A stretch of DNA of 15,598 nt, from IMG/VR virus record IMGVR_UViG_2585427738_000003. One strand, given 5' to 3'. A model generated the notes under the pieces. That model had not been told where the DNA came from. It ran no database searches and saw only the letters and a program-made list of their open reading frames with translations. The position numbers and the translations under genes were made by a program. Each line of letters begins with the position of its first letter. Within the stretch, counting starts at the first letter, position 1. This stretch comes from a virus (Duplodnaviria > Heunggongvirae > Uroviricota > Caudoviricetes). Positions 2,846 through 13,240 of this stretch are shown here, one piece after another.

Positions 2846-3116
2846 GATGTTACCGTAGTATGTGAGTATCCATCGAATAGACACCAAGCAAAAAAGCTCC
2901 CGAAGGAGCCTTCATTTTCACTTTTTTAAATCCAACGACAGACGGCTGGCATTTAAGTATTGTGAAATATTATCAAATGTAATCATCATTGATTTACAAA
3001 AGATACATTTTGCCCCGAAAGGATTCATGTCAGAAACATCAAAAGATGATGTTCTATACTGGGAACCATGACAACACGGGCATCTAAAGTGAATATGGTT
3101 TGTAATATTGTCTACC

Positions 3117-3329
3117 TCAAAGCGCCACTACATGAACAGCGGCAGGACCTTTAGGTCCGTTCTCAATACCAAATTCAACTTCCTGATTCTCAGTTAATGT
3201 TTTGAAATCGTTGCTCTGAATTGCTGAGAAATGGACAAACACATCTTTGCTGCCATCTTTCGGCGTGATGAAACCAAAACCTTTTTCAGGGTTAAACCAT
3301 TTCACTAAACCAGTCATTTTGTTAGACAT
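3117..3329 (-). CDS. cspI: Cold-shock protein CspI (CspA family, 70 aa)
   Basis: [70 protein letters not shown] carries the canonical RNP motifs (KGFGFI, VFVHF). AAGG lies upstream of the ATG; about 360 bp of non-coding sequence lies upstream, consistent with a long cold-shock leader. Confidence 0.9.
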
Positions 3330-3690
3330 AATTATTACCTTTTGAAGAAATTAGCCCTTGGGCAGAATGGTCCGAAAAAAATATCAGAGAGAAAAACCAA
3401 CAAGGAAATCTCAAGAGGTACAAATAATAAAATTATAACAATGACTGCTTCAGATAAATTTGTAACAAACCAGAACACCATTAACGCATGATTAACCACC
3501 CATAGCAAGGATTACTTTTGTAAAGAAAAACACAGCAATGAAAGAATAGCTTTATTTATTAATAAAACGTGTCATTCTGATTAAGACCTTTTATCTTACC
3601 CTTAAGATTTCAGGAATTTTGGCTCATGGAAGAGTCCTTTTTATTCAAATTTTACATTCCGCGATGTAAATGTTCCGATTTAATATTACC

Positions 3691-5720: not shown

Positions 5721-5999
5721 GATTGTGGTGCTTTTTGTGGGAGTCATCCACTTACGCACTTTGTTTTGCCATGCCAGCAGTTAGCTTCTGCTGTAAAACT
5801 ATTCATGCAGCAAACCTGCACTTCACCACAATGGTTAGCATACTTTTCCTGATTAAGATTTTGCCAAATATGCTAGCCATTGTTTCATGTATTGGACCTC
5901 CTTACTTTTTATTAAAGAGATCCAATATTCACTACTCTGTCCGTATCTCTACTCAGGCATCAGCCTTCTTCGTTATCGTATACAGACGAGCGATGAATT

Positions 6000-6215
6000 T
6001 TAATCAGTAATGATGACATTTGCTGCTGCAGGACCTTTAGCACCACTCTCTATAGAGAAGGTAACCTTTTGACCTTCAAATAAGGTTCGATAATTATCAT
6101 TCTGAATCGCAGAAAAATGCACAAACACATCTTTACTACCATCAACAGGAGAAATAAAGCCGAAACCTTTATCAGCGTTAAACCATTTTACTAAACCAGT
6201 CATTTTATTTGACAT
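6000..6215 (-). CDS. cspB: Cold-shock protein CspB (71 aa)
   Basis: [71 protein letters not shown] is a canonical CspA-family sequence; divergent from cspF across a roughly 300-bp region. Confidence 0.9.
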
Positions 6216-6515
6216 TCTACATTCCTTAACTTGAGCCTTTCGGCATAAATGGTTTGCATAACAGAAACGACTTCGTACTTAATTGGAGAGACTCAAAGAA
6301 GGAATAAGTGAATAACACCTGAAATGAGAACTGCTTTAGTAAACTACTTCGTATATCGTCTGTTCTTCAAACCGACGCAATCATTAACGCATAGTTGAAC
6401 ATATGAAGCAATGTTTATTTTAGACATCCAGCCATCTTCAACCCCATCAAAAAACTATAGCTTTCTTCAGGAACGTGTGTATAGTGCGCCAAGTTATCAG
6501 TATTAAGGAATTTTT

Positions 6516-11708: not shown

Positions 11709-12284
11709 ATGGATTTCGACACAATCATGGAAAAGGCTTACGAAGAATACTTCGAAGGCCTTGCCGAAGGCGAAGAAGCTCTCAGCTTCAGTGAGTTTAA
11801 ACAGGCACTCAGAATAAGAATGTGCTCTCACAATGACGCGGAGCACAAATATGAGAAGCAAAATCAGACCGCAGAAAATTTTGTTCTGGAACCCGGAGAA
11901 ACGCTTTTCAAAATTCCCGTTACGTGCCCCATTTGCGGTTTTACATCAGAAGAACTTGACGACTCCTGTAACAATCAGGAAACAACCAAGTATGTCGAAG
12001 ATGATACCGAGTGCGCACGAAGAACGATTATATCCACGAGTCCAAACTCCAGGACCAATAAATCTCACTATGAGAGGGTGATTAATCCACTCCCCCAAAC
12101 CAATAAAAAAGATGCCGGAGGACAAAAAACCCAATGGAACAACGGGATATCTGTCAAAAAAAGACGTTCCATTAAAGACAAACAACGCAGCGCCAACAAC
12201 TGTAAGCGCTTTATACCAGTAATCAATTTTCATGTTCTTAAGCGGATTTATTGGTGGTTGCGACATTGCTTAATGAATCCTTAA
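11709..12284 (+). CDS. 191-codon ORF covering the ydfB/ydfC region; cysteine-rich middle, basic C-terminus
   Basis: ATG at 11709, one nucleotide after the ydfA stop (TGA-T-ATG); MDFDTIMEKAYEEYFEGLAEGEEALSFSEFKQALRIRMCSHNDAEHKYEKQNQTAENFVLEPGETLFKIPVTCPICGFTSEELDDSC... then a Lys/Arg-rich tail. The frame is open for 191 codons. The track ORF (11667) starts at an upstream GTG. Confidence 0.5.
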   Translation: MDFDTIMEKAYEEYFEGLAEGEEALSFSEFKQALRIRMCSHNDAEHKYEKQNQTAENFVLEPGETLFKIPVTCPICGFTSEELDDSCNNQETTKYVEDDTECARRTIISTSPNSRTNKSHYERVINPLPQTNKKDAGGQKTQWNNGISVKKRRSIKDKQRSANNCKRFIPVINFHVLKRIYWWLRHCLMNP

Positions 12285-12543
12285 AACTGTGGTGATTTTA
12301 AGGATACCACCTCGCCTGACGTGGTTAAAAGCAGGCACACAACACGAAAGCGCACGGCGAAGTTCGTCTCACTGTACGGTGTCGTTAAATTTAATTCGAC
12401 CGTGCGCTTCCGGTTGTGGCAACCCGCAAAATGGCGCGGCGGTAAGTATGGCGGGGTTATTCCTTCCCCGTTGAGGACACCGGGTTGTCAGGTTGACCAT
12501 ACGCTTAAGTGACAACCCCGCTGCAACGCCCTCTGTTATCAAT

Positions 12544-12601
12544 TTTCTGGTGACGTTTGGCGGTATCAGTTTTACTCCGTGACTGCTCTGCCGCCCTTTT
12601 T
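12544..12601 (+). ncRNA. dicF: DicF small regulatory RNA (ftsZ-targeting sRNA processed from the dicA-operon transcript)
   Basis: TTTCTGGTGACGTTTGGCGGTATCAGTTTTACTCCGTGACTGCTCUGCCGCCC followed by TTTTT matches the DicF sequence as I recall it, including the GGCGG...CCGCC terminator stem and U-tail. Confidence 0.85.
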
Positions 12602-12607
12602 AAAGTG

Positions 12608-12751
12608 AATTTTGTGATGCGGTGAATACGGCTAAGCGCACGCGGAACAGTTAAAACCAAAAACAGTGTTATGGGTGGATTCTCTGTATCCGACGTTAAT
12701 TGTTAACTGGTTAACGTCACCTGGAGGCACCAGGCACTGCATCACAAAATT
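12608..12751. repeat. 13-bp perfect inverted repeat (AATTTTGTGATGC at 12608-12620; GCATCACAAAATT at 12739-12751) bracketing the dicF-dicB spacer
   Basis: The arms are exact reverse complements; the left arm starts 7 nt after the dicF U-tail and the right arm ends 20 nt before the dicB ATG. Confidence 0.8.
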
Positions 12752-12770
12752 CATTGTTGAGGACGCGATA

Positions 12771-12959
12771 ATGAAAACGTTATTACCAAACGTTAATACG
12801 TCTGAAGGTTGTTTTGAAATTGGTGTCACTATCAGTAACCCTGTATTTACTGAAGATGCCATTAACAAGAGAAAACAAGAACGGGAGCTATTAAATAAAA
12901 TATGCATTGTTTCAATGCTGGCTCGTTTACGTCTGATGCCAAAAGGATGTGCACAATGA
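12771..12959 (+). CDS. dicB: DicB cell-division inhibitor (62 aa)
   Basis: ATG at 12771 with GAGGA 7 nt upstream; MKTLLPNVNTSEGCFEIGVTISNPVFTEDAINKRKQERELLNKICIVSMLARLRLMPKGCAQ. The track ORF starts earlier at 12666. Confidence 0.9.
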   Translation: MKTLLPNVNTSEGCFEIGVTISNPVFTEDAINKRKQERELLNKICIVSMLARLRLMPKGCAQ

Positions 12960-13147
12960 ATTCAGCATTTGCGCTTGTTCTGACAGTTTTTCTTGTTTCC
13001 GGAGTGCCAGTTGATATTGCAGTCAGTGTTCACAGGACAATTCAGGAGTGTATGACTGCAGCAACCGAACAGAAAATTCCCGGTAACTGTTACCCGGTCG
13101 ATAAAGTTATTCACCAGGATAATATCGAAATCCCGGCAGGTCTTTAA
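12956..13147 (+). CDS. ydfD: YdfD small membrane lysis protein (63 aa)
   Basis: ATG overlaps the dicB stop (ATGA); MNSAFALVLTVFLVSGVPVDIAVSVHRTIQECMTAATEQKIPGNCYPVDKVIHQDNIEIPAGL has an N-terminal transmembrane helix. Confidence 0.85.
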   Translation: MNSAFALVLTVFLVSGVPVDIAVSVHRTIQECMTAATEQKIPGNCYPVDKVIHQDNIEIPAGL

Positions 13148-13240
13148 AACAGTTCCGTAATAAATATCCGGTTTCATTCTTATATGCCAGCAATGGCAGG
13201 GATTTGTTCATCCTTAAATCTGTCATGAGGTTAAAACAAA

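Follow-up and report, generated by a model that had tools for sequence, protein, structure and literature searches.

The dicF-dicB spacer holds an STnc100-related folded RNA domain closed by a long-range inverted repeat

Introduction

Several well-described transcripts carry extended double-stranded stalks that are recognized by RNase III, among them the stems of the rRNA operons, the sites in the T7 early mRNA, the leader of the lambda N gene, and sib. In these stalks, sequences that flank a functional RNA or precede a gene are brought together into a duplex of about two turns, and its cleavage, which leaves a 2-nt 3' overhang, separates the products and can alter the translation or the stability of the neighbouring one.

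The dicBF operon is a textbook prophage operon, in which the 174 nt separating DicF from dicB have until now been treated as a spacer. A 72-nt species of DicF was reported to be made by RNase III, in papers that cite Faubladier, Cam and Bouche 1990 for this observation (PMC5069750, PMC9438474); the accessible text of these papers gives the size of the product only, and mentions no long-range helix, folded domain or relatives. The latest study of the operon describes RNase III for the 190-nt DicF, at its 5' end only, and leaves the 72-nt form unmentioned (PMC10448788). In the Rac prophage of K-12, a further sRNA, KilS, has been annotated (PMC8175672).

Lambdoid prophages are also the home of STnc100, an RNA otherwise named EcOnc27 or sRNA103 and related to PasD1 and PasD2, members of which were reported to be Hfq-associated. 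Classical STnc100 copies are free-standing, often tandem sRNAs of the late region. The free-standing copies have a closing helix (P1) of 6-11 bp and, where this was checked, terminators of their own. Here we describe the region between DicF and dicB within a window of 15,598 nucleotides (the whole stretch of DNA that was analysed), and we relate it to these systems.

Results and Discussion

The locus and its inverted repeat

The prophage in the window is Qin-like and belongs to E. coli: over 12400-12960 it shares 100% identity with strain E2865 and 98.9% with K-12, and this segment was matched in 4722 of the 5426 complete E. coli genomes. The 53-nt form of DicF lies on the plus strand at 12544/12545-12596, where the Rfam DicF model scores 76.7 bits (12545-12596) and to which the MG1655 annotation (1649382-1649434, corresponding to 12544-12596) was mapped with the dicB start as anchor. 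Its terminator hairpin is followed by a U-tract ending near 12601, 3-5 nt 5' of the first arm of the repeat. The dicB coding sequence (62 aa, plus strand, 12771-12959) is given both by our list of open reading frames and by the annotation of K-12 and of E2865, with a Shine-Dalgarno sequence, GAGGA, that can be read at 12759-12763 of the same strand.

An initial annotation of this DNA had pointed to a perfect 13-bp inverted repeat bracketing the spacer, and the two 13-mers are indeed present, at 12608-12620 and 12739-12751. The perfect complement is in fact 15 nt long (TGAATTTTGTGATGC at 12606-12620 and GCATCACAAAATTCA at 12739-12753), and a repeat search extended the arms to 19 nt (12606-12624 and 12735-12753) with one non-Watson-Crick position. 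This sole mismatch, G12621 opposite T12738, is a G.U wobble in plus-strand RNA, and the further pairs G12605.U12754 and A12604-U12755 bring the helix to 21 bp. The helix has two G.U pairs (G12621.U12738 and G12605.U12754) and no mismatches, and thus amounts to about two turns (at least 20 bp) of near-perfect double-stranded RNA; the duplex energy of the window arms, taken with 30-nt flanks, was -34.8 kcal/mol. As had been described, the first arm comes just after the DicF terminator; the second, placed originally 20 nt before dicB, ends 17 nt before the ATG at 12771 if the perfect arm is counted. Similarly, the enclosed length of about 118 nt holds for the 13-mers but not for the 19-nt arms, which enclose 110 nt.

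The base composition of this AT-rich spacer, taken alone, would speak for chance complementarity. Dinucleotide-preserving shuffling of 12597-12771 (175 nt; 2000 rounds), however, never yielded a perfect inverted repeat of more than 11 nt (0 of 2000), and the arms covary across genera, as described below; a chance origin, already judged unlikely in the initial annotation, can for all practical purposes be dismissed. The repeat is also unique in the 15.6-kb window, in which no other perfect inverted repeat of at least 13 nt with arms at most 200 nt apart was found.

Selection for a helix in plus-strand RNA

It had been proposed that the arms form a long-range stem in the read-through transcript, and that their conservation and compensatory changes be compared across related prophages. 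This comparison bears the proposal out, as the arms do covary in homologous prophages. The long-stem alignment comprised 26 distinct sequences from Escherichia, Shigella, Citrobacter, Klebsiella, Raoultella, Lelliottia and Buttiauxella. The helix formed by the repeat, P1, has its 5' strand at 12604-12624 (perfect core 12606-12620) and its 3' strand at 12735-12755 (perfect core 12739-12753), both on the plus strand, and compensatory double changes were found at 12 of its 21 pairs. Pairing was seen in 97.4% of the P1 cells of this alignment, compared with 33-41% for the whole four-helix structure when it was slid by 1-3 columns, and the observed values were reached in none of 500 shuffles. Since G.U combinations greatly outnumber A.C (40 vs 3), selection on the helix acts in the plus-strand RNA, as opposed to the DNA or a transcript of the other strand. 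We conclude that the stem is a genuine, selected RNA helix.

A DNA-level element, be it an operator, a cruciform or a small mobile insertion with its terminal inverted repeats, could also account for a perfect 15-bp inverted repeat placed around some 120 bp, and for the occurrence of similar sequence in several genomic contexts. Such an origin is nevertheless extremely improbable: the arms covary rather than stay conserved, the excess of G.U makes sense only in one RNA strand, the interior shows covariation of the RNA type, and the flanks carry no target-site duplication. On the grounds of the covariation and the G.U asymmetry, we rejected both the mobile element and the DNA operator.

The folded domain between the arms

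Folding of 12540-12800, which the initial annotation had also put forward as a check, gave a multi-branched structure that the repeat closes (z = -5.2). When 12604-12755 was folded alone, P1 again closed a multi-branched fold (z = -6.4), and it was paired in both the MFE and the centroid structures. Its inner 8 nt (12617-12624, ending in GCGGUG, with the partner 12735-12742) are the part found throughout the family to which the domain belongs, whereas the outer 13 nt are an extension particular to a subclass of long-stem leaders; both points are taken up below.

Four further elements, all on the plus strand, occupy the space between the arms. P2 (12628-12643), recognized by RNAalifold and in the alignments, is a hairpin of 5 bp with a bulged A at 12640 and the loop UAAGC, and its pairs vary between CG, GC and UA at three of the five positions (RNAalifold, 93 sequences). 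At the base of P2 (12628/12643) the window has an A.C mismatch, and nearly all relatives, K-12 included, have G at 12628 and hence a G-C pair. The P3 region (12644-12691) holds one or more hairpins within the junction, is variable in length and sequence, and shows indels in both alignments. It is followed by P4 (12692-12718), a hairpin of 10 bp with the loop GUUAACU and a conserved CUGG, in which compensatory changes occur at 6 of the 10 pairs in the long-stem alignment. P5 (12720-12734; CCUGG-AGGCA-CCAGG) lies within a nearly invariant 20-mer, CACCNGGAGGCACCNGGCAC (12718-12737), which is the most conserved stretch of the core; the middle pair of P5 covaries between U-A and G-C. Rather than serving as a spacer, the 110 nt enclosed by the arms form a folded RNA domain that is conserved.

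The segment 12718-12742 of the core also contains a perfect Shine-Dalgarno-like GGAGG in the stem and loop of P5. In relatives, CACC occurs three times within about 22 nt, and in the window twice, followed by CACU. The GGUG in the 5' strand of P1 could pair with any of the three CACC-type sites, which hints at alternative pairings.

We also considered a protein-coding cause of the conservation of the core and rejected it, as what is conserved is base pairing, and the flanks show no conservation as protein. A 97-aa open reading frame in frame with dicB (12666-12959, plus strand) extends back through the folded domain; this frame, and the 'SPGGTRH' that recurs in translations of relatives, which is the 20-mer read in one frame, are by-products. 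Likeness to tRNA or tmRNA was rejected as well, ARAGORN having returned nothing in the window and no tRNA model having matched at E <= 10.

Relationship to STnc100

The Rfam model of STnc100 (RF02076) aligned over its whole length (positions 1-206) to 12594-12803, scoring 34.6 bits (E = 7.5e-6, 601 nt searched). This score falls short of the gathering score of 47 bits, and neither the window nor any of nine related loci gave an STnc100 match at the gathering threshold. The outer helix of the model coincides with the inverted repeat; the model's 3' hairpin, which falls on the start of dicB, is poorly aligned. The 20-mer, in turn, matches at least 120 phage contigs, many of which carry STnc100 matches of 52-132 bits. 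An alignment of 93 sequences, made of bona fide STnc100 matches and the window, contains 27 invariant columns and reveals a shared architecture: RNAalifold recovered from it an 8-bp P1, a 5-bp P2 with a bulged A, and the CCNGG hairpin (P5). One P1 pair is G-C in 63 of these sequences and A-U in 24, and three hairpin pairs switch from C-G to G-C in 34-39 of them. Because this family-wide closing helix was recovered with covariation, the inner 8 bp of the stem (12617-12624 / 12735-12742) are the universal P1 of a known prophage RNA family.

With STnc100 the window shares the GGUG-AAU junction, P2 with its bulged A, P4, P5 in the 20-mer CACCNGGAGGCACCNGGCAC, the 8-bp closing helix, and the occurrence in lambdoid prophages. 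It differs in the pairs of P2 (GCGGC/GCGC, as against CCCCC/GGGG in STnc100), in the extension of P1 to about 21 bp, and in its setting, since the window copy lies in an early operon, directly 5' of an open reading frame, and has no terminator of its own. No terminator-like site on the plus strand was found in 12000-13200, a range that runs from the element through dicB and beyond.

Long-stem leaders in other prophages and phages

A second search pattern, specific to the window-type P2, detected copies in Citrobacter, Lelliottia, Klebsiella, Raoultella, Buttiauxella, Enterobacter, Pantoea, Arsenophonus and others. In many of these copies P1 is again 19-25 bp long but of different sequence, as exemplified by the arm pairs CAGACCUUGCAAUGCAGUG / CACUGCAUUGCAAGGUCUG and AGCAGGUUUUAAGGUGUGGUG / CACCACACCUUAAAGCCUGCU. 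Duplex energies were -28 to -41 kcal/mol for cognate arms, compared with a mean of -13 kcal/mol for arms swapped between types, and among the copies the stem strength is bimodal. The leader is also present in intact phages, among them mEp460, Tritos, HannyBb, Rac-SA53 and the Shigella phages 75/02 Stx and POCJ13; P7 and D6 carry the short-stem form.

The place of the long-stem domain directly 5' of small open reading frames is conserved. A Shine-Dalgarno sequence and a start codon follow every long-stem copy examined, the distance from the first base of the 3' arm to the start codon being 36-70 nt (36-56 nt in all copies but one). The genes behind the long stem include dicB, kilR, a 282-aa Ant-like frame, several hydrophobic peptides of 36-45 aa, and other small proteins. 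In the related loci examined from other genera, neither DicF nor a terminator was found 5' of the long stem. Setting the 3' end of an sRNA therefore cannot be the general purpose of this stem, and DicF 3'-end formation was rejected as its general role.

The arrangement in the Rac prophage of K-12 resembles that in Qin, with an sRNA bearing a DicF-like terminator, the long-stem domain and a gene for a division inhibitor in the same order. The DicF-like terminator of KilS (…CCGCCCUUUUU) is followed directly by a copy of the long-stem leader and then by kilR, within NC_000913.3 1417701-1418900 (our locus L185), minus strand, 500-830. The two prophages differ in the gene behind the leader, kilR in Rac and dicB in Qin. 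Compared with the window, the 3' arm of the Rac leader has one bulged A, and P5 in K-12 Rac has CCAGA instead of CCAGG, which breaks one pair. The annotation of Rac covers KilS but not the leader. The shared leader thus links two cell-division-inhibitor loci, those of Qin and Rac.

In the accessible literature we found no description of the dicF-dicB 'spacer' as a folded domain of the STnc100/PasD superfamily, of a long-stem, terminator-less leader subclass below the Rfam threshold, or of this subclass recurring across Enterobacterales in front of kil-type genes and of other small early ones. Both the link to the STnc100 family and the subclass itself appear to be undescribed so far, and the STnc100/PasD family gains a subclass that was missed by the Rfam thresholds.

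Probable processing of the stem by RNase III

The initial annotation had seen in the stem a plausible RNase III substrate, or a structure that might set the 3' end of DicF or gate dicB translation. If the 72 nt reported in the papers citing Faubladier and co-workers are counted from 12544 (12544 + 71 = 12615), the putative cut falls at 12615-12616 (+/-3 nt, plus strand), inside the 5' arm. We infer that the published cut lies near the middle of this arm, 9-10 bp from the junction; a position near 12615 is where RNase III is expected to cut a two-turn duplex. By this mapping from the product size, the 72-nt site of the 1990 study belongs to the same locus and the same helix. Both the dependence on RNase III and the size of 72 nt are taken from the literature, as relayed by the citing papers; the RNase III part of the earlier idea is probably right and agrees with published work, in which the processing had already been reported. 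The domain on its stalk would provide a structural basis for this old observation.

A table of RNA-seq data from an rnc deletion holds an entry between dicF and dicB at NC_000913.3 1649470 (about 12632 in the window), with 0 and 0 reads in the wild type vs 26 in the mutant; it is flagged as a known site and is accompanied by hundreds of similar low-count entries, so that the signal, while in keeping with a cut here, is a weak one. The kilR-sieB entry of the same table (1418510) maps to the 5' edge of KilS, outside the leader. The repeat search also revealed an upstream hairpin on the plus strand, with 13-nt arms that are 92% complementary (12345-12357 / 12400-12412). It would fit the published cut by which RNase III generates the 190-nt DicF at its 5' end; counted back from the terminator, this cut should lie at about 12408-12411.

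We consider it probable that the repeat is the P1 helix, of about 21 bp, which closes an RNA domain of about 150 nt from the STnc100/PasD/EcOnc27 group within the dicBF transcript, and that it is cut by RNase III near the helix middle. The domain, with a core of P2, the variable P3, P4, P5 and the nearly invariant junction, would sit 3' of the DicF terminator and 5' of the ribosome-binding site of dicB in the plus-strand operon transcript, and the helix would form only in RNA that reads through this terminator. Cleavage of the two-turn duplex near its middle would give the 72-nt form of DicF its 3' end at about 12615 and part DicF from the dicB message; a second, staggered cut on the 3' strand, near 12744/12745, would be expected from the 2-nt overhang rule. 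A core RNA of about 128 nt (roughly 12617-12744) would be left, retaining the family-wide 8-bp P1, together with a dicB mRNA having a 5'-monophosphate leader of about 26 nt. Release of the core, its subsequent fate and any effect on the synthesis of DicB are predictions of this scheme. In its construction from flanking sequences the helix would resemble the known RNase III stalks, which it differs from in enclosing a small conserved phage RNA.

Alternatively, the helix could be purely architectural, with P1 closing a domain that acts as a trans-acting sRNA of the Hfq type or as a protein-binding element, and with the RNase III cut being incidental turnover. The extra length would then provide stability or insulate the fold from the flanking mRNA. 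This would be in line with the existence of free-standing STnc100 copies that manage with a P1 of 6-11 bp and terminators of their own, and with the reports of STnc100/EcOnc27 and PasD as Hfq-bound sRNAs. Two full, near-perfect turns, however, exceed the need of folding and have the size of a classical RNase III substrate, and an RNase III cut in the stem has been reported, according to the papers citing the 1990 study. Moreover, the stem strength is bimodal, and all the long-stem copies that we examined directly 5' of an open reading frame retain a P1 of 19-25 bp, the sequences of which differ widely. In view of these features we find the architectural explanation distinctly unlikely.

Translation of dicB

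Gating of dicB translation is a possibility suggested by the predicted structures, and it would be compatible with a stalk cut by RNase III. The read-through structure might hide the ribosome-binding site of dicB, which cleavage or unfolding would then open, as in the lambda N leader. The Shine-Dalgarno sequence starts 3 nt after the end of P1; in the MFE structure, GAGG (12759-12762) pairs with CCUU (12595-12598), where the DicF terminator ends. After the proposed cut, the Shine-Dalgarno sequence is predicted to be unpaired with a probability of 0.34, up from 0.15. The genes behind the leader are often toxic, as dicB and kilR are. On the other hand, this predicted change in accessibility is small, and the Shine-Dalgarno sequence lies outside the covarying helix, 3-25 nt beyond its end in the relatives. 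Its pairing with the U-tract is without covariation and of low information. No covarying pairing that would include the Shine-Dalgarno sequence or the start codon, as in a translational operator, was found in the window and its relatives. We hold such gating to be unlikely; cleavage of the stalk by RNase III is our preferred explanation.

A broader reading can be put forward tentatively, as one that is possible but rather doubtful: the dicF-dicB and kilS-kilR spacers and their counterparts in Enterobacterales would encode a third product of the operon, a structured STnc100-superfamily RNA about 128 nt long, which RNase III would excise from the polycistronic early transcript by means of a dedicated stalk. 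This RNA would act either independently, as a regulator, or in cis, as a sensor that adjusts the expression of the toxic gene following it. Should this be true, the long-stem leader would be a portable RNA cassette marking kil-type genes.

Other RNA elements

The company in which the domain is found varies. In one locus (L019, 4747-5234, plus strand), DicF, the long-stem leader, isrK and the C4 antisense RNA stand in a row 5' of an Ant-like frame, and another (L130) likewise carries isrK and C4. In a different subclass (L128, L110, L023 and L077), a KilS/DicF-like module, consisting of a GCUGUGUGUAGUCYUGGCGG… hairpin and a U-tract, lies 3' of the domain and not 5' of it, which suggests that the RNA modules are shuffled as cassettes.

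STnc100 itself occurs in tandem arrays of 4-6 copies per phage contig (L016, 2265-3380, minus strand; L104, 4349-5513 and 8357-8555, plus strand); the array of L016 adjoins tRNA genes, and the array copies are with or without terminators of their own. In P1-like phage-plasmids, a short-stem copy of the domain lies between tRNA genes, 5' of a small hypothetical open reading frame. Short-stem copies were located at 687-837 of L002, at 2426-2567 of L004, in P7 (AF503408.1, 72453-72568) and in D6.

Elsewhere in the window, the Rfam model of the cspA thermoregulator matches the minus strand twice, at 5984-6376 (158.8 bits) and at 3090-3474 (114.2 bits); both matches are presumably the 5' leaders of Qin cold-shock genes.
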